A stretch of DNA of 64,000 bases. Source: Chthoniobacteraceae bacterium. GTDB lineage: Bacteria > Verrucomicrobiota > Verrucomicrobiia > Chthoniobacterales > Chthoniobacteraceae. Positions 49,210-58,114 of this stretch are shown here, one piece after another. Position numbers and translations under genes: made by a program. The notes under the pieces are model-generated. The model had not been told where the DNA came from. It worked only from the letters and a program-made list of their open reading frames with translations, and did no database searches. The stretch lies in assembly GCA_031409655.1 (NCBI GenBank), contig JANNXQ010000130.1, positions 1 to 64,000 on the forward strand, read 5' to 3'. How positions within the stretch are numbered: the first letter of the stretch is position 1; every line of letters starts with the position of its first letter.

Positions 49210-49302
49210 TGAAAGGATGAAGGATGAGGGATGAAGGATGAAGTAGTCAGGCGCTTCGCGCTCCATCTTCTTCACCCTTCATCCTTCATCTTTCCTCCTT
49301 TC
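49210..49302. repeat. Inverted (AAGGATG)n/(CATCCTT)n element in the divergent gap, directly upstream of trpD
   Basis: Left arm 49210-49242, right arm about 49270-49302. Confidence 0.8.
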
Positions 49303-49355: not shown

Positions 49356-50771
49356 ATGAAAAAAGAGAGCCTCGACACGCATCAGAAGGCGCTGCAGATC
49401 AATCTCGACCCGCGCTGGTACGGCACCTTCGCCGAAATCGGCGCCGGCCAGGAAGTCGTCCGCTGGTTTTTCCGCGTCGGCGCGGCCGCAGGGACCATCG
49501 CCAAATCCATGTCGGCCTACGACATGACGGTGAGCGACGCCATCTACGGCCAGACGGAACGCTACGTCTCGCGCCCGCGCCTCCAGGCCATGCTCGACCA
49601 TGAGCACAAGCTGAACATCGAGCGCCTCGGAGAAGCCCGTGGCGACAATACTGCGTTCTTCGCCTTTGCCGACACCGTCGTCGCGCGCAGCTTCAAAGGC
49701 GGCAACGAATGCCACGGCTGGATGGGCGTGAAATACCAGGCCCATCCGCGCGACGAAGCCAGCCAGATAACGCTCCACATGCGGATGCTCGATGCGGAAG
49801 CATCGCTCCAGCAGGAGGCGCTCGGCATCCTCGGCGTGAACCTGCTCTACGGCGCGTTTTTCTATCATCACGAGCCCGAGATGCTCGTGGAGAGCCTGCT
49901 CGACTCCCTGACCATCGGCCGCATCGAGATCGACGTCATCGCTTTCAATGGCATCGAGTATCGCTACGTGGACAACCGGATCATGGCGCTGAAGCTCGTG
50001 CAGCTCGGCCTCTCCGGCGCGGCGATGTTTGGCCCCACCGGCGAAGTCCTCCAGCCGAGCGAGGTGCTCTACAAGCGCCCGGTGCTCGTCGAGCGCGGCA
50101 GCTTCCGCCCCGTCACCCATGTGAATGTGGACATGCTCAAGTGCGCCCTGGACAAATTCCAGGCCGACCCGGCGGTGGCGGGGAAAAATGTGCTCACGCT
50201 CGGTGAGATCACCATGCGTAATCTGCTCGCCGAGGGCGCGGAGGTCGATCGGCGGGACTTTCTCGCCCGCGCCGATCTGCTCGCGGCGGCTGGCATGACG
50301 GTGCTGATCTCGGATTACTTCGAGTATTACCGGCTCGCTGCCTATCTCGCGTGGCGGACGAAAGAGCGCATCGGCATCGTCATGGGCGTGCCGAGCCTCA
50401 TCGAGATCTTCGATGAGAAGTACTACACCCAGCTTCCCGGCGGCATCCTGGAGTCCTTCGGCCGGCTCTTTAAGAATGACCTGAAGCTCTTCGTCTATCC
50501 GTACAAAGACGCGGCGACGGGCGAAGTGAAGACTGTCGATAACATCGAAGTCGCGCCGGAACTGCGGAAGCTCTACGGCTACTTGCAGGATCGCGGCAGC
50601 TTCGTGGGCCTCGATAATTTCAACCCCGACTTCCTCCACATCTTCTCCCGCGAAGTGCTCAAACGCATCCCCACTTCGGATCACTCCTGGGAAGAGATGG
50701 TCCCGACCCAGGTCGTCGAGGTCATCAAAAAGCGCGGCTTCTTTGGCTACGGGAAGCATCGGATGGAGTAG
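49356..50771 (+). CDS. Conserved protein with C-terminal HIGH-superfamily nucleotidyltransferase-like region
   Basis: YGTFAEIGAGQEV N-terminus; ERGSFRPVTHVN resembles GSFxPxxxxH; ends WEEMVPTQVVEVIKKRGFFGY like NadD C-termini. Confidence 0.7.
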   Translation: MKKESLDTHQKALQINLDPRWYGTFAEIGAGQEVVRWFFRVGAAAGTIAKSMSAYDMTVSDAIYGQTERYVSRPRLQAMLDHEHKLNIERLGEARGDNTAFFAFADTVVARSFKGGNECHGWMGVKYQAHPRDEASQITLHMRMLDAEASLQQEALGILGVNLLYGAFFYHHEPEMLVESLLDSLTIGRIEIDVIAFNGIEYRYVDNRIMALKLVQLGLSGAAMFGPTGEVLQPSEVLYKRPVLVERGSFRPVTHVNVDMLKCALDKFQADPAVAGKNVLTLGEITMRNLLAEGAEVDRRDFLARADLLAAAGMTVLISDYFEYYRLAAYLAWRTKERIGIVMGVPSLIEIFDEKYYTQLPGGILESFGRLFKNDLKLFVYPYKDAATGEVKTVDNIEVAPELRKLYGYLQDRGSFVGLDNFNPDFLHIFSREVLKRIPTSDHSWEEMVPTQVVEVIKKRGFFGYGKHRME

Positions 50772-50784
50772 GCGACGCGAGTTC

Positions 50785-50808
50785 GGTGGATGGCGCGCTC
50801 CGAGCGCG
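50785..50808. repeat. Solo family A REP
   Basis: GGTGGATGGCGCGCTCCG identical to the start of the 12989 arm. Confidence 0.6.
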
Positions 50809-50857: not shown

Positions 50858-52555
50858 GTGCGCCCGGCCCTGCTGCGATCCGTCCTCTCCGTTTTGTCCG
50901 TCCTGCTGCTTGCTGCGTGCAAGCCTGCGGCCCCACCGGCTGCGAGTTCCTCACCAGCAAAGGAACGGATGGCGGAACCCAGCGCGTTGAAGCTGCGCTT
51001 CACCTACGGTTCGGAGAAGGAGGAGTGGGTGAAGGCGGTCACGGCGGATTTCAATCAGCGTAATATCAAGACTACCGCCGGAAAACCCATCCGCGTGGAG
51101 GCCGTGGCCAAGGGCTCGGGTGAACTGATCGACGGCCTGCTCGCCGGCACGGATCGCGCGCATCTCGCGAGCCCGGCGTCGGGCGCTTTCGTGAAGCTCG
51201 GCAACGCTCAATCCCGCGCGCGCTCGGGCGCGGATTTGCTCGGCTCCACGGAGAATCTCGTGCTCTCGCCCGTGGTCATCGCGATGTGGCAGCCGATGGC
51301 GGAGGCGATCGGCTGGGGGAAAAAGCCCGTGGGCTGGAGCGACATCCTCGCGGTCGCGGGCAGTCAGCAGGGCTGGGGCGCGTTCGGCTTTCCGCAGTGG
51401 GGGCAGTTTAAGTTTGGGCACACGCATCCGCAGTTCAGCAATAGCGGACTCATCTCGCTCTTCGCGGAAGTGTATGCGGCGACGGGGAAAGTGGGCGGGC
51501 TCACGCTCGATGACATCGCCAAGCCCGAGACGGCAAAGTATCTCGCGGGCATCGAGCGCTCGGTCGTCCACTACGGCAGTTCCACGGGTTTCTTCGGGAA
51601 GAAGATGTTTGCCAACGGCCCCGAATATCTCAGCGCGGCGGTGCTGTACGAAAACATGGTCATCGAGTCGCGCGGGCCGACTTACCGGCTGCCTTTCCCA
51701 ATCGTCGCGATTTATCCGAAGGAAGGCACCTTCTGGAGTGACCATCCGGTGGGTGTGGTCGAGCGCGAATGGGTCACGCCAGAGCATCGCGAGGCGGCCA
51801 AGAGTTACATCGCCTTTCTGCTCGAGCGTCCGCAGCAGGAACGCGCGTTGCAATTCGGCTTCCGCCCGGCCGCCGTGGATGTCGCGCTCGGGGCGCCGAT
51901 CGACGCCGCGCACGGCGTGAATCCCAAGGAACCGCAAACCACTCTCGACCTGCCGAGCACGGAGGCCATGGATGCAATCCTGCGGCTCTGGCAGCAAAAC
52001 AAGAAGCACTCGAACATCACGCTCGTCTTCGACGTGTCTGGCAGCATGAAGGTGGGCAACCTCATCGAGAACGCCCGCGACGGAGCGCTCGAACTGCTCA
52101 AGGCGCTCGGTGACGAGGATTCCTTCGCGCTCGTGCCCTTCAACAACACGGTGCTCTCGCGCGACGATCCCACGCTGCTGCGCCAGACGCGCTCCCAAGC
52201 GGTGCAGAGGACCAATTCGCTCTTCGCCAGCGGCGGCACCGCGCTCTACGACGCGATCCTCGCCGCCTACCGGCAACAGATGGCGCGCGCGTCCACCAAC
52301 ACGGACAAGATTTCCGCCGTCGTCGTGCTGACCGACGGCGCCGACACCGATAGCAAAATCAAGCTCCCTCAGCTTCTCGAGCAACTCCGCTTCGACGCCG
52401 AGCGGAACAGCATCCGCGTCTTCACCATCGGCTACGGCGGCGCTGCGGAGAACAAGGTGCTGAAGCAAATCTCCGACGCCACGCAGGCAAAATTTTACGT
52501 CGGCACGACCGACAACATCCGCGAAGTCTTCAAGGACATCTCCACTTTCTTCTGA
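50858..52555 (+). CDS. Lipoprotein: type II solute-binding-like domain fused to a vWA domain
   Basis: Lipobox LLAAC; YGSEKEEW, SPVVIAMW, FKFGHTHPQFSNSGL; MIDAS DVSGS ... GGTALYD ... LTDG. Confidence 0.85.
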   Translation: MRPALLRSVLSVLSVLLLAACKPAAPPAASSSPAKERMAEPSALKLRFTYGSEKEEWVKAVTADFNQRNIKTTAGKPIRVEAVAKGSGELIDGLLAGTDRAHLASPASGAFVKLGNAQSRARSGADLLGSTENLVLSPVVIAMWQPMAEAIGWGKKPVGWSDILAVAGSQQGWGAFGFPQWGQFKFGHTHPQFSNSGLISLFAEVYAATGKVGGLTLDDIAKPETAKYLAGIERSVVHYGSSTGFFGKKMFANGPEYLSAAVLYENMVIESRGPTYRLPFPIVAIYPKEGTFWSDHPVGVVEREWVTPEHREAAKSYIAFLLERPQQERALQFGFRPAAVDVALGAPIDAAHGVNPKEPQTTLDLPSTEAMDAILRLWQQNKKHSNITLVFDVSGSMKVGNLIENARDGALELLKALGDEDSFALVPFNNTVLSRDDPTLLRQTRSQAVQRTNSLFASGGTALYDAILAAYRQQMARASTNTDKISAVVVLTDGADTDSKIKLPQLLEQLRFDAERNSIRVFTIGYGGAAENKVLKQISDATQAKFYVGTTDNIREVFKDISTFF

Positions 52556-52558
52556 CCT

Positions 52559-53779
52559 ATGGCCGACGAACCCAAATTCACCTTTCTGGGCAAGCTCTTC
52601 ATCTTTCTCTTCGTCGCCGCGTGCGCCTTCGGGGCGTATCGGATGTTTCGCAAGGAACCGATCGCGATCGGCGTGCCGCCGCGCGCGGCGACTCCGACTG
52701 TGGACACTCCCGCGACCGAGGTCCACACGGCTGGCGGTCAGGACGCGTCCGTCGAGATCGGCATCGCTTACGGCACGGAAAAACAGCGCTGGCTCATCTG
52801 GGCGTCGGACGAGTTTGCAAAGACCGCCCAGGGCCGAAAGACAAAGATCAATCTCATCCCGATGGGTTCGCTCGATGGCGCGAATGCGGTGCTGCGCGGC
52901 GATCAGCGGATCACCGTCTGGAGTCCGGCGAGCGCGCTGTACAAGGATGTCTTCGCGCAGGAATGGACGCTCAAGAACAACAAGAACCCCATCGTCCGCG
53001 AAGAGGCGCTTGCACTCAGCCCGATGGTCTTTGTGCTCTGGCAGGAGCGCCACGAATCCTTCGCCGCAAAATACAAGGACGTGAGCTTCGAGACCGTGGC
53101 TGCCGCCTTGCGCGAAGCGGGCGGCTGGGACGCGATCGCGCAGAAGCCAGAGTGGGGACTGTTTAAGTTCGGCCACGCGCATCCCAATCAATCGAACAGC
53201 GGCCTGATGACCCTCGTGCTCATGGCCTACGACTTTCACAACAAGAACCAGGGCCTCACCCTCAAGGCGCTGCTCGACCCGAAATTCCAGACGTGGATGA
53301 ACGGCATCGAATCCGCCGTGACCGGCCTCTCCGGCAGCACCGGCAATATGATGCGCGACATGGTGCTGCGCGGTCCATCGAGCTACGACGCGCTCTTCGT
53401 CTATGAAAATGTCGCCATCGACTACCTCAAGAATGCCGAGGGCCGCTGGGGCCAGCTCCACATCGCCTACCCGAAGCGCAATCTGTGGAACGACAATCCC
53501 TACTACATCCTCGACGTGCCGTGGAGCGACGCCGCGCAGCGCAAGGCCGCCGGCGCCTTCCTCGACTTCCTGCTCACCGAAACCATCCAGCGCGAGGCGC
53601 TCAAGCACGGCTTCCGCCCCGGCAATCCCGCGGTGCCCGTGAAGTTCCCGGAGAGCCCGTTCACGGTGTACGCGCAGAACGGGCTGCAAATCGAAGTCGG
53701 GACCGTCTGCGAAACACCCAAGGCCGAGGTCATCAAGACGCTGCTCGACATCTGGCAGCGCGGCCAGAGCGGACGCTGA
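52559..53779 (+). CDS. Membrane-anchored solute-binding-like protein, paralogue of the upstream SBP domain
   Basis: N-terminal TM helix; YGTEKQRW, SPMVFVLW, FKFGHAHPNQSNSGL, VYEN, GFRP shared with the upstream protein. Confidence 0.8.
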   Translation: MADEPKFTFLGKLFIFLFVAACAFGAYRMFRKEPIAIGVPPRAATPTVDTPATEVHTAGGQDASVEIGIAYGTEKQRWLIWASDEFAKTAQGRKTKINLIPMGSLDGANAVLRGDQRITVWSPASALYKDVFAQEWTLKNNKNPIVREEALALSPMVFVLWQERHESFAAKYKDVSFETVAAALREAGGWDAIAQKPEWGLFKFGHAHPNQSNSGLMTLVLMAYDFHNKNQGLTLKALLDPKFQTWMNGIESAVTGLSGSTGNMMRDMVLRGPSSYDALFVYENVAIDYLKNAEGRWGQLHIAYPKRNLWNDNPYYILDVPWSDAAQRKAAGAFLDFLLTETIQREALKHGFRPGNPAVPVKFPESPFTVYAQNGLQIEVGTVCETPKAEVIKTLLDIWQRGQSGR

Positions 53780-53789
53780 TTCGCGAGCT

Positions 53790-54605
53790 GTGTGGCGCTA
53801 CCTCAAAGCCGCCTTTCACGCGCGGCCCGACATCCCCGGCCTCGGGCGGTTGCCGGTGAATCTCATCGCGCTCATCGGCCTGACCATCCTTGGGTTCGGA
53901 CACCCGGGATTCTGGCTGCTCGGCGCCGGCGGCGAGGCGGCCTATCTCGCCGCGCTCGCCACGAACCGGCGCTTCCGGCGTCTGATCGACGCGCAGGATT
54001 TGCAGCTCCAGAGCGGCGAGGAAAACGACCAGCGGCGCGGCGTCATCGAGACCCTCTCGGAGCAGCGACGCGCGCGGCTCGCTTCAATCGAAGCGCGCTG
54101 CGCGAAAGTCATCAAACTGCATCAGAACGCGCAGACCGACGGGTTTGTGGTCGATGGCAACCGCGAGGCGCTCGCGAAACTCCAGTGGCTCTATCTCAAG
54201 CTGCTCGTCGCGGAGCAGAATCTCGAAAACATCCAGACCGCCATCGCCGAGGAACATCTCCGGCGGCAGATCGAAGAAATCGCGGGCGAACTGCGGGATG
54301 AAGATCTCACACGGTCCTTGCGCGAGTCGAAGGAAGCCACGCTGCACATCCTGGAAAAGCGGCTCACGAACTTGAACCGGCGCGAAGAATCGCTCGAAGA
54401 GATCGGCAGCGACCTCGTGCGGATCGAAGCGCAGATCGATCTCGCCCTGGAAAACGCCGGGATGCGCGGCGGCCAGCCCGAGACCATCTCCGCGAATATC
54501 AAACTCGTGAGCCACCTCCTGGACGACTCCGTCTTCGGCGACTCGAGCGACTCGATCACCGCGCTGGACCGCACCTTCGGCACCGAAGACTCGCAGGCGC
54601 AGTAG
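53790..54605 (+). CDS. Two-TM plus long coiled-coil protein
   Basis: Hydrophobic N-terminal hairpin, then Glu/Arg/Leu-rich heptads; GTG start 10 nt after the upstream stop. Confidence 0.75.
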   Translation: MWRYLKAAFHARPDIPGLGRLPVNLIALIGLTILGFGHPGFWLLGAGGEAAYLAALATNRRFRRLIDAQDLQLQSGEENDQRRGVIETLSEQRRARLASIEARCAKVIKLHQNAQTDGFVVDGNREALAKLQWLYLKLLVAEQNLENIQTAIAEEHLRRQIEEIAGELRDEDLTRSLRESKEATLHILEKRLTNLNRREESLEEIGSDLVRIEAQIDLALENAGMRGGQPETISANIKLVSHLLDDSVFGDSSDSITALDRTFGTEDSQAQ

Positions 54606-54723
54606 TAGGGCAGGCATCCCTGCCTGTCGTCGTCCGCCGGGCTTCCAGCCTGGCATGTTCGGTGTGCGCAAGCCGGGCAGGATGCCCGGCGGACAACCAC
54701 AGGCTAGAGGCCTGCACTACTAC
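54602..54723. repeat. Nested REPIN-like element, family B (GTAG...CTAC), between convergent genes
   Basis: GTAGTAGGGCAGGCATCCCTGCCTG ... CAGGCTAGAGGCCTGCACTACTAC, with inner pair GTCCGCCGGGCTTCCAGCCTGGC / GCCGGGCAGGATGCCCGGCGGAC. Confidence 0.8.
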
Positions 54724-56369
54724 CGCCCACGGAACGCCTCCGGCACGAACTCCGCATCGCTCGCTTCCGCGACGGCGAGGCCGATCTGGAAATCCATGAT
54801 CTCCCGCGCGACCGGACTGCGATACCCGGCGAGCACCGTGCGGAGCACTTCGCTCAGCGGTGCGCCGCCGGTTTGCACGGTGCGGTAGAGTTTGATTGCC
54901 AGCGTCTCGGCAGCGCCGGGTGTGAGAAGCGTCGGGAGTAAATCGCGGAGCGCGGGGAATTCCGTTTCGGGGATTTCGAGATCGAGTCGTTTCGCGAGCA
55001 CTCGCAGGAGCGAGAAGCTTTCCTCCGGCGTCGTTGTCGGGAAGATCGGGATCTTCATATCCACGCGACCCGGTCGCTTGAGATCGACTTCGATCAAGTC
55101 CGGCCGGCTTGAGGCGAGGATCCAGACGATTTTCCCGCGGTTGGCCGTGTTGCTCATCTCTTTCGCAAACATCGAATACACGCGGCCCGAGAGGCCCGAG
55201 TCGTTGCTCCCGGCGTCGCGGCGTCCGAGCGCCTGATCGGCTTCGTCGATGAAGACAAAGCACCGCCCGAGCGCCTGGAGCAAGCGGAAGATTTTTTCGA
55301 GATTGCCCTCAGTGCTGCCCACCCATTTGTCGCGGAAGTTTTTGATCTTCACCACGGGGACGTCCGCCTCGCCGGCCAGGCACTCGACGAGGTACGTCTT
55401 GCCCGTGCCCACCGGGCCGCAGACCAGGTAACCCATCGGCATCGCGCGGAGATCGTTCTGCTTCCACAGCGCCAGATCCTGGCGCAGCCACTCCTTGAGC
55501 TTTGGCTGGCCGTGGAAATCGTCGAGCGTGCGCCGCGATTCGGTGAACTCGATGAGCCCGTTGCAATCCTTCTCCACGAGTTCCTTTTTCAGCTTCACGA
55601 GATCGGCGGCGCGGATCGGTGCGCGGCGATGCTCGGCCAGCTTGAGCATATTGCCGGCGGCATTGAGCGTCGCGCCGGTGAGTTGCGCGGCGAGTCGCGG
55701 CAGGTCGGTGGAAAATTCCCGCAGCGCCGCCGGATGCCGCTCCACGAAAATCTCGAACGCGCCGCGCATTTCCTCCGGCGCAGGCAGCGGCAGCTTGATC
55801 GCGGCGGTTTGCGGATTGTTCACGAGCAGCGGATGCAGGTCGTTCAGATTCTCGACGATGAGGAAACTGACGAGCGACGAACGCAGCAGCAGTTTGTCGC
55901 CGGACCATTCGCGCAGCAGAGAGGCGAGGGCGTTGAGGTCGTAGTTCAGCGCGCCGGGCACCGCGGGCGCGACGAGCTGCGCGGCCTTGACCACGCAGCC
56001 CACCTGCACCGCCGGCTGCCCGAGTTGCGCGAGATTCGCCGCGTAGCGGAAGTAATGGGTGCAGGCCTCGATCGCCCCGCGCGGCGAGCGCCGATCGATG
56101 CTCTCCTGGGCGCTGCGCCACTGCGAAAAAATCTCGCCGCCCTTTTCCACACGCAAGCCATTGCCGAGATCGTAGCTGAGGATGACCTCGAACCGCGGCA
56201 GCAGCACTTTGTGCAGAAAATCGTCGAGTGTCCCGAGTGCTGCCTGACCGCCGAGCGGGAGGAGGAATTGATCGCCAGTGTTGCCGTAGAGGATGAACTG
56301 ATTCGCCGACTGGCTCTCATAGAGCGCGATCAGTTCGGTCGCCCACGAGGGGAGAGCGGGCGCGGTCAT
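54720..56369 (-). CDS. Classical-clade AAA+ ATPase with degenerate N-terminal domain
   Basis: Walker A GPVGTGKT, pore loop DKWVGSTE, Walker B VFIDEAD, SRH ASSRPDLIEVDLKRPGRVD. Confidence 0.9.
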   Translation of the reverse strand: MTAPALPSWATELIALYESQSANQFILYGNTGDQFLLPLGGQAALGTLDDFLHKVLLPRFEVILSYDLGNGLRVEKGGEIFSQWRSAQESIDRRSPRGAIEACTHYFRYAANLAQLGQPAVQVGCVVKAAQLVAPAVPGALNYDLNALASLLREWSGDKLLLRSSLVSFLIVENLNDLHPLLVNNPQTAAIKLPLPAPEEMRGAFEIFVERHPAALREFSTDLPRLAAQLTGATLNAAGNMLKLAEHRRAPIRAADLVKLKKELVEKDCNGLIEFTESRRTLDDFHGQPKLKEWLRQDLALWKQNDLRAMPMGYLVCGPVGTGKTYLVECLAGEADVPVVKIKNFRDKWVGSTEGNLEKIFRLLQALGRCFVFIDEADQALGRRDAGSNDSGLSGRVYSMFAKEMSNTANRGKIVWILASSRPDLIEVDLKRPGRVDMKIPIFPTTTPEESFSLLRVLAKRLDLEIPETEFPALRDLLPTLLTPGAAETLAIKLYRTVQTGGAPLSEVLRTVLAGYRSPVAREIMDFQIGLAVAEASDAEFVPEAFRGR

Positions 56370-56379
56370 CCGTGGATGC

Positions 56380-57132
56380 CTACGCCTGCGTCTCGGGGCC
56401 GAGCGTCTTCGTTACCGTGGTCGCTGCGGGCGCGCTCTCGGCGGACGGCGTCTCCAGCGCGAGACCTTCCCGCGCGGCAAAGTCCGCCAGTGCTTGATCC
56501 GCGAGCGCCTTCTGCTCCTCCTCCTTCACGCGCACCCCGGTCATGTCGATGGAATCCCGCGCGACCCGCGCCCGGCCCGCCGCCTTCTCCCGATCCTCCT
56601 CCACCATCTCGTGCAGCCGATTCAGCGTGTCGCCCGAACCACCGATGGTGCTGACCATGCCCGCCGCCATTTCCGCCATCTCCGCCGTGGCCTTCTTGAT
56701 CTTCAGATCGGTGAGGCTGTACTTCAGCGCCTCAATCTTGTCCTGCGCCGCCTTGATGGATACATCGCGCGCCCGGATGAGCTCCTGATATGTCTTCTCC
56801 GCCTGCGCGAGCTGGGTGCGATTCTCGGTGAGTTGCGAAGTGACCGACTGGAGCCGCAGCGCGTACTGCCCCGCGGCGTCGCGATTGCCGGCGCGCAGAT
56901 TCGCCGTGGCCTTGGCACGCAGGTCGCGCTCCTCGGTTTCGAGCTTTTTCACCTGCGTCATGAGTCGCTCGCACAACCCAGCGTGCGACGCGAGACCTTG
57001 ATTGTAATTGGCGATCTGCTTGCGCAGATTTTCCTTTTCCACCTCCATCAGCGCCTCGGGATTGGCCCGCTCCATCCCTGAGACAAAGAGGCCGAGAAAC
57101 CCACGGAAGAGATTGGCGATGCGCTTGAACAT
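56380..57132 (-). CDS. pspA: PspA/IM30 (Vipp1, ESCRT-III superfamily) protein
   Basis: Amphipathic N-terminus MFKRIANLFRG, E.ANPEALM, all-helical coiled coil, ANLRAGNRDAA, C-terminal ADQALADF. Confidence 0.8.
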   Translation of the reverse strand: MFKRIANLFRGFLGLFVSGMERANPEALMEVEKENLRKQIANYNQGLASHAGLCERLMTQVKKLETEERDLRAKATANLRAGNRDAAGQYALRLQSVTSQLTENRTQLAQAEKTYQELIRARDVSIKAAQDKIEALKYSLTDLKIKKATAEMAEMAAGMVSTIGGSGDTLNRLHEMVEEDREKAAGRARVARDSIDMTGVRVKEEEQKALADQALADFAAREGLALETPSAESAPAATTVTKTLGPETQA

Positions 57133-57977: not shown

Positions 57978-58114
57978 GCGCTTTGGAGTGCGGTGACTTG
58001 TCACCGCTTTCGCGCGAGCGACTTGTCGCTCGGCCCTGTCCCGTCCCACACCCACCGCAGCGGACAAGTCCGCTCCACCACAAAGCGCGGACAAGTCCGC
58101 GCAGTCCAAAGCGC
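57978..58114. repeat. Nested REPIN-like element, family C (TTTGGAGTGCGGTGACTTGTCACCGCTTT)
   Basis: Arms 57978-58010 and 58082-58114, plus inner hairpins GAGCGACTTGTCGCTC and AGCGGACAAGTCCGCT; lies between convergent bcp and xerD. Confidence 0.8.

Follow-up and report, generated by a model that had tools for sequence, protein, structure and literature searches.

Five genes at positions 50,858–57,132 of a 64,000-nt stretch of DNA from a Chthoniobacteraceae bacterium (contig JANNXQ010000130.1, positions 1–64,000; hereafter the window) make up a real, conserved and rare system that is apparently mobile. On the plus strand lie SBP1-vWA (50858–52555, 565 aa; Pfam PF13531, SBP_bac_11, and PF00092, VWA), which joins a solute-binding protein (SBP) domain to a vWA domain; a second solute-binding protein, SBP2 (52559–53779, 406 aa; PF13531, SBP_bac_11); and a transmembrane (TM) coiled-coil protein, TMCC (53790–54605, 271 aa; no Pfam match). 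On the minus strand, facing them, lie a PspA/IM30 protein (56380–57132, 250 aa; PF04012, PspA_IM30) and a tandem AAA+ ATPase, here called AAA (54720–56369, 549 aa; PF00004, AAA). All five open reading frames (ORFs) were found where an earlier annotation made from the letters alone, the sequence-only reading, had placed two tight convergent operons, with gaps in map order of 3, 10, 114, and 10 nt. The two facing operons are confirmed as halves of one system whose genes mostly run in the same direction elsewhere. With modest confidence, we read this system as a receptor pair that would act through a TM adaptor on PspA assembly, with turnover driven by the AAA, so that an exchangeable input module is combined with a shared output module.

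Gene order was compared in two samples. A scan of species-representative genomes with the TMCC alignment gave 145 confirmed stretches; the best 80 of the 145 were analyzed, and 16 of these were dropped for short flanks, leaving 64 informative loci. A PspA-anchored scan of metagenomes gave at least 298 confirmed stretches, 80 of which were analyzed; 27, some of the sample being near-duplicates, had long flanks on both sides. The co-directional order SBP1-vWA, SBP2, PspA, TMCC, AAA was seen in 28 of the 80 TMCC loci (27 of the 64 informative ones), and 12 of the 27 long PspA-anchored loci were complete and co-directional as well. SBP genes lay immediately upstream in 63 of the 64 informative TMCC loci. 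Six of the 64 were without AAA, and three more showed one arrangement each: the trio of SBP1-vWA, SBP2, and TMCC with an opposite-strand AAA, PspA–TMCC–AAA, and a trio without a vWA match. The long PspA-anchored loci included a further four with PspA–AAA and one with PspA–TMCC–AAA. The record titles of complete loci, which are labels of metagenome-assembled genomes (MAGs), name Verrucomicrobiota, Acidobacteriota, Planctomycetota, and Pseudomonadota, and the closest named relatives are Chthoniobacterales MAGs (SBP1 84% identical at locus L016). The convergent layout of the window recurs in one long PspA-anchored locus, L150, whose AAA is the sister of the window AAA in the tree (support 99/93); the layout shared by the two was therefore probably inherited. 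An ABC (ATP-binding cassette) ATPase was present within 3 kb in only 2 of 51 loci with 3-kb flanks on both sides, permeases not being counted separately. This bears out the earlier proposal that the five genes form one system, and the SBP genes, noted there to lack ABC partners, usually stand without neighboring ABC genes elsewhere too. Pairwise distances of the five proteins correlate across 38 loci (Spearman 0.62–0.87); this is shared descent rather than co-evolution and is not counted as support. As to rarity, when 300 genomes from the window's phylum were searched with SBP1, 5 gave a match in addition to the center genome, and 300 from the phylum of an acidobacterium likewise yielded 3; TMCC had no match in any of the three genomes of the same genus and was matched in 6 of the 40 relatives.

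The linkage of the trio with PspA–AAA is strong, not obligatory: many genomes split the set or lose parts of it, and the counts that follow weigh against a single coupled system. The trio stood alone in 28 of the 64 informative TMCC loci, and PspA stood alone in 9 of the 27 long PspA-anchored loci. When the genomes of the 48 TMCC loci without a co-directional AAA, together with genome G012 (49 genomes), were searched for partners, an AAA at ≥50% identity was present in 13, a close AAA and a close PspA together in only 11, and no AAA match at all in 9. Six Acidobacteriaceae genomes (loci L085, L086, L091, and L093–L095) keep SBP1-vWA, SBP2, PspA, and TMCC, and no AAA of the family was found in them; these loci provide a natural comparison. 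In genomes G801 and G849 the SBP pair is present, and both TMCC and a close PspA are missing; SBP1-vWA is encoded by G206 and G323, neither of which gave an AAA match. The surveyed genomes are mostly incomplete MAGs.

Splitting of this kind bears on an alternative in which the five genes are two separate, co-regulated stress modules, the trio having an output of its own and PspA–AAA joining operons without physical coupling. In addition to the trio-only loci, it can draw on the 13 of 27 long PspA-anchored loci with a PspA–AAA dyad or PspA alone, on the Thermoanaerobaculia with the trio, most of which have only a distant dyad (AAA 33–44% and PspA 26–29% identical), and on a Variovorax plasmid where a distant SBP-vWA is found with TelA instead of PspA. 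Against it stand the constant gene order in four phyla, in which PspA is inserted after SBP2 and before TMCC, and the pairing of the same PspA–AAA clade with another, unrelated binding-protein module, itself equipped with a TMCC homologue. The parts also co-occur in genomes even when unlinked: among 300 genomes of a planctomycete's phylum, 7 have a close SBP2, and 5 of these also encode a close PspA, each time on a different contig; of the 293 lacking a close SBP2, 8 have such a PspA (Fisher p = 1e-6, a value inflated by kinship among the genomes). Taken together, we consider two uncoupled modules unlikely. The Thermoanaerobaculia also contain a separate set of three genes, for a 250-aa protein without Pfam match and for distantly related PspA and tandem AAA proteins (L249:7593-10928, L250, and L251); a homologue of the 250-aa protein is found in the OmpA-type operon L282 as well.

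The other, unrelated binding-protein module is of the PBP-OmpA type. Five PBP-OmpA loci carry the window's PspA–AAA clade, with AAA 51–66% and PspA 64–75% identical to those of the window. The TM proteins of these five loci are 28–35% identical to TMCC in three and unalignable in two, compared with 41–58% for SBP-vWA loci. Trees were built from 21 SBP-vWA and 8–10 OmpA loci, hand-chosen, two very distant loci being excluded for TMCC and PspA. Input type required four changes on the AAA tree and four on the PspA tree, a single change being enough in 0% of bootstrap trees; on the TMCC tree it required two, with a single change sufficing in 18% of bootstrap trees. The smaller number of changes on the TMCC tree argues that TMCC follows the periplasmic input module and that PspA–AAA acts as the shared output, as far as these trees can tell. 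Stand-alone vWA genes recur in OmpA-type modules; together with the SBP-vWA/TelA cluster of Variovorax, they suggest that binding protein, vWA, and TM coiled coil form a recurring input plan. A sister-type binding protein on contig C29 (30% identical) was considered as a second input and rejected, as by eye it belongs to a urea-carboxylase-type ABC cluster and no module profile matched there.

SBP1-vWA, whose GTG start codon is as set by the ORF finder, comprises a signal peptide with lipobox Cys21, a class-II solute-binding domain (residues ∼42–384), and a C-terminal vWA domain with an intact metal ion-dependent adhesion site (MIDAS). Of 85 homologues, 76 have the lipobox Cys in the aligned position and every one has the complete set of five MIDAS residues, so the vWA domain appears to be a functional site for metal-dependent contacts on the outer side of the membrane. 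An extracytoplasmic vWA cannot serve as adaptor of a cytoplasmic ATPase, and the vWA of this protein, fused behind a lipoprotein SBP, was rejected as an AAA adaptor. The AAA type that pairs with vWA domains, in the cytoplasm, is the MoxR clade. A MoxR–vWA chaperone system was also considered and rejected: PF00004 alone scored above its cut-off for the ATPase, the best matches being CDC48, FtsH, and PAN, and the vWA forms one protein with a lipoprotein SBP. The vWA–AAA+ partnership put forward in the sequence-only reading had to be given up for the same reasons, the ATPase being of the classical, VAT/Cdc48-like clade and on the other side of the membrane from the vWA.

For the ligand of the SBP pair, structure modeling and profile searches were combined. 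The SBP1-vWA model (predicted local distance difference test score 89.8) has the class-II binding-protein fold found in ABC importer SBPs and matches Sbp, the thiamine-binding protein TbpA, the sugar-phosphate-binding AfuA, and the sensor HptA with Z 26–29 at a structural identity of 15–18%. Searched against the PDB as a single sequence, SBP1 matched nothing at E ≤ 1; a profile built from the two SBP domains had sulfate-binding proteins as its best matches (E 6e-8 to 8e-5). Sulfate is contacted by Asp11, Ser45, Ser130, Gly131, Ala173, and Trp192, according to PMC7177696. In the profile alignment, S87, T243, and Y264 lie opposite Sbp Ser45, Ala173, and Trp192, the Ser45 stretch scoring just 4 bits. 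An SNSG motif, present in 85 of 85 SBP1, 81 of 87 SBP2, and 119 of 120 long fusion homologues, is the presumed counterpart of Ser130/Gly131, which the profile search did not align. Motifs holding the pocket residues are near-invariant in both SBP paralogues and in the long fusions; they point to an anionic ligand, whose identity they do not name.

SBP2, 29% identical to SBP1 over the SBP domains, has a hydrophobic segment at residues 7–25, within which a Cys is kept in 70–95% of homologues. SBP2 is thus predicted to be membrane-anchored at its N terminus; an uncleaved helix and a lipoprotein both fit. A search for longer SBP2 homologues gave 191 matches, of which 120 were listed, all 47–58% identical to SBP2. 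A protein kinase domain was found in 108 of these 120, with a hydrophobic segment between kinase and SBP in 104 of the 108 and catalytic-loop and DFG motifs in 105; the kinase–SBP2 fusion was confirmed by Pfam in five genome loci. In the remaining 12, a long N-terminal region other than a kinase is accompanied by a hydrophobic segment. In other genomes, therefore, the SBP2 domain is the ectodomain of a receptor, and in the window its probable role is sensing, not delivery to a transporter. The fusions lend independent support to the earlier suggestion that the SBP pair are sensors. The Ser/Thr kinase–TM–SBP2 proteins are a sizeable family (P0271–P0389; L244:8741-11131, L277, L278, L295, and L296), with Isosphaeraceae among its named members, that may deserve a study of its own; the portion of the review PMC8050422 consulted lists a single SBP-stimulated Ser/Thr kinase. 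SBP2 was also seen behind a short conserved N-terminal domain without Pfam match, J-domain-like by eye, followed by a long low-complexity linker (P0270, P0275, P0282, P0297, and others; L240:7518-9419), and in genome G323 it is fused behind HEAT repeats.

The same proteins could instead capture solute for uptake, the SBPs feeding an unlinked ABC transporter, or PspA-driven invagination importing the ligand, the latter as Ravi et al. (2024) suggest for ABC-containing operons. Such a role would suit the fold, which is that of transport SBPs, and sister operons with the same PspA–AAA clade (L282, L283, and L168) do include a permease and an ABC ATPase. The scarcity of ABC ATPases near the SBP-vWA loci and the fusion of the SBP2 domain to kinases, a signaling architecture, both tell against it. 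Also counting against uptake are the C-terminal vWA and the N-terminal anchor, which to our knowledge are unusual for importer SBPs. We regard uptake as improbable.

TMCC begins with an N-terminal hydrophobic hairpin followed by helical hairpins, the model showing helices at residues 23–34 and 39–58 and then over 60–245. It has 803 homologues, and its profile gave 1301 matches at E ≤ 0.001 against 1.84 billion representatives, all without names and therefore without family placement. The profile also matches the TM proteins of OmpA-type operons (E 7e-19 to 3e-14); TMCC is thus judged homologous to the membrane coiled-coil protein of PBP-OmpA operons, with or without ABC genes. No Foldseek match was found at E ≤ 0.001, VIA-align returned only generic coiled coils, and family scans of 32 TMCC members gave coiled-coil noise only. 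The superposition on PspA (4whe_A; Z 8.0, root-mean-square deviation 7.1, 131 residues aligned) was tied with unrelated coiled coils. By language-model features the nearest named cluster is Rv2743c/PspM (0.88, 186 of 256 features), a lead only, as PF25587 did not match. A direct tie of TMCC to the PspA polymer, and of the receptor to TMCC, meets the following difficulties. At E ≤ 1, TMCC had no match to PF03357 (Snf7) and none at its gene to PF25587 (PspM), and profile–profile alignment with PspA had a probability of 1.1%; TMCC has no sequence-level kinship to Snf7, PspM, or PspA. With no more than about six residues of SBP2 in the cytoplasm, any relay must pass through the membrane.

The AAA is a tandem protein of the classical clade, by the evidence of its motifs and profiles, with a degenerate N-terminal domain and an active C-terminal one. 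All 63 homologues keep, in the C-terminal domain, Walker A K324/T325, Walker B D375/E376, pore-loop W349, R432, and R435; all 63 also have Ser at sensor 1, a position occupied by Asn in the VAT alignment. The nearest solved structures are VAT and Cdc48/p97. The N-terminal half matches Cdc48/p97 by profile at E 1.5e-7 in a PDB search, with the Walker B DE replaced; profile–profile comparison of the two halves was weak (probability 3%). PspA matches PF04012 at 45.9 bits (cut-off 33.9) and is the sole such match in the genome, the assembly of which is 94.9% complete. Its N terminus is amphipathic (hydrophobic moment 0.56 for residues 1–18), and a C-terminal K-x-M/L-G-P motif, shared by 90 of 114 homologues, may serve as a tag for the ATPase. 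Where the operon is split, the PspA gene is usually still found beside that of the AAA, which makes PspA the favored client, with TMCC as another candidate. Close PspA genes without module partners were seen beside phosphate-transport/polyphosphate-like genes, by eye from ORF clusters, at L166, L172, L179, L182, L193, L199, L202, L206, and L208.

Put together, the mechanism we prefer builds on the computed gene linkage, domain identities, intact catalytic motifs, kinase fusions, and exchange of inputs, and adds by inference the ligand class, every protein contact, the direction of signaling, and the substrate of the ATPase; it would run as follows. SBP1-vWA and SBP2 would form a ligand receptor on the outer face of the inner membrane, the ligand probably being an oxyanion or a phosphorylated or sulfated small molecule, and the MIDAS of the vWA would mediate a metal-dependent protein contact outside the cell. 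TMCC, as the input's own membrane adaptor, would present a cytoplasmic helical hairpin; PspA may then polymerize on the membrane at TMCC sites and stabilize or remodel it; and the tandem AAA+ unfoldase could dismantle the PspA polymer (or TMCC), as Vps4 does with ESCRT-III. A bolder form, which we put forward only tentatively and think rather unlikely to hold in full, is a receptor-to-ESCRT pathway without a transcriptional step, in which an anionic signal causes the TM adaptor to nucleate PspA, a Cdc48-like unfoldase provides turnover, and receptors are swapped like cassettes. If true, such a pathway would supply, with a defined trigger, a functional counterpart of the Vps4 that has been called absent from bacteria. 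For the study of how bacteria start and dismantle PspA polymers, a five-gene, transporter-free set offers a compact minimal system for reconstitution. The kinase fusions suggest that the trigger is a ligand and could also be used as a reporter for finding it.

A defense or damage response against phage or membrane-active toxins was also weighed, in which the vWA/SBP pair would recognize an incoming molecule and PspA would seal or sacrifice the membrane. The patchy, apparently mobile distribution seen in the TMCC counts and the replacement of PspA by TelA in a related cluster would fit such a role. Four of the five proteins had no PADLOC hit, however, and the IetA hits of the AAA were weak and generic; no defense family recurs among the neighbor clusters, which were read by eye and not scanned against libraries; and in the window the flanking genes are housekeeping and the G+C content of the module (63.8%) matches that of the genome (63.4%). 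We think a defense role improbable.

The surroundings of the module in the window were also examined. The 114-nt gap contains a 36-nt inverted repeat (arms 54622–54657 and 54669–54704), and the entire gap folds into one hairpin. It gave 16 blastn matches across 12 contigs, self-matches counted, mostly at 70–77% identity, and is therefore a dispersed repetitive extragenic palindromic (REP)/REPIN-like element (54601–54722), the only thing between the converging operons, as the sequence-only reading had it. This dispersal, together with the gap of only ∼50 nt at convergent locus L150, led us to reject the palindrome as a component of the conserved system. Three more intergenic repeat families (49211–49302, 50783–50807, and 57978–58114) each match 12–32 contigs, and the genome is rich in REP-like elements. 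Promoter and terminator scans at the locus were at chance level. A 471-aa protein without Pfam or NCBIfam match is encoded on the plus strand (49356–50771), 86 nt upstream of SBP1-vWA, and was not seen as a conserved neighbor at other loci. By Pfam/NCBIfam, the other flanking genes encode an AhpC-TSA peroxiredoxin, an integrase-family recombinase, an anthranilate phosphoribosyltransferase-type protein, and an HtrA-type protease. No ABC or Psp gene is among the flanking genes of the window, in agreement with the earlier description, and PspC was not found in the genome at its 94.9% completeness, PspB and PspF not having been searched genome-wide.

Among known systems, ESCRT-III/Vps4 resembles the module in that a polymer of the ESCRT-III superfamily is encoded together with an AAA+ of the classical clade, whose aromatic pore loop is retained. 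Vps4 differs in having an MIT domain and a single AAA, whereas the AAA of the module has a degenerate AAA domain in that place and no MIT match. Orthology to Vps4 was rejected on this ground, the N-terminal half being a degenerate AAA and the nearest structures VAT/Cdc48; the ATPase would be at most a Vps4 analogue. According to a 2025 review (PMC7619361), a Vps4-like ATPase “appears absent in bacteria.” The classical phage shock protein systems (PspBC–PspA–PspF of E. coli, LiaI–LiaH of B. subtilis, and ClgR–PspA–PspM of M. tuberculosis) likewise combine PspA with a dedicated membrane partner; the system described here differs in the lack of PspC in the genome, of a conserved transcription factor among the neighbors, and in its periplasmic binding-protein input.

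On the receptor side, the consulted part of PMC8050422 describes HptA (PF13531) as a transporter-free sensor SBP and GlnH–GlnX–PknG as a chain of SBP, adaptor, and effector; “PspA” and “vWA” have no mention in that part of the review. In HptA–HptS, a transporter-free SBP signals across the membrane, and HptA shares PF13531 and a fold match with SBP1; GlnH–GlnX–PknG is built on the same three tiers, an SBP, an adaptor in the membrane, and an effector in the cytoplasm. Both differ in that the output here would be a membrane-remodeling polymer and an unfoldase, not a kinase. The Variovorax cluster (L227:2875-7910; plasmid NZ_LR594667.1), which lies between a flotillin operon and a Wadjet system, resembles the module in having a distant SBP-vWA (26% identical), another gene that looks like one for a membrane-anchored binding protein, and a small TM coiled-coil protein to which the TMCC profile gave a weak match (E 3e-4 among 22 proteins); it differs in having TelA instead of PspA and no AAA.

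The closest counterparts are the operons of Ravi et al. (PMC11237479), which combine PspA, TM-Snf7, and an inactive plus an active AAA, sometimes with ABC genes and PBPB-OmpA; OGG56892.1, AKJ06548.1, and AEY64321.1 are given as examples of “SIG+TM+Snf7” operons, and ATP-dependent membrane remodeling linked to transport is proposed. The module shares with them PspA, a coiled-coil protein anchored in the membrane, a tandem AAA whose first domain is inactive, and a binding protein of class II. The TM protein of operons with the described layout is a homologue of TMCC, a comparison made by layout, no Snf7 domain being detected in TMCC. The window differs in having a sulfate-binding-protein-like SBP_bac_11 pair, one with vWA, in place of the NMT1-type protein with OmpA; in lacking the OmpA domain; and in the near absence of ABC ATPases from its relatives (OmpA and ABC both being optional in the paper). 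The portions seen of the Ravi et al. text and supplement contain no mention of vWA, and those of PMC9239133 no mention of vWA or SBP. The sequence-only reading had called the system uncharacterized: this stands for the transporter-free SBP-vWA/SBP2 variant, no description of which was found in the literature (the web application of Ravi et al. may list it), and not for the core of PspA, TM-Snf7, tandem AAA, and binding protein, which those authors had already predicted from genomes. The binding protein read there as part of transport looks here like a receptor, so that the interpretation of binding proteins in published PspA–AAA operons shifts from transport towards sensing. What is new is the pair of sulfate-binding-like SBPs as input, without OmpA or ABC, together with the assignments, drawn from homology, of the SBP2 domain as a Ser/Thr kinase ectodomain and of the PspA–AAA clade as a partner of two input types.

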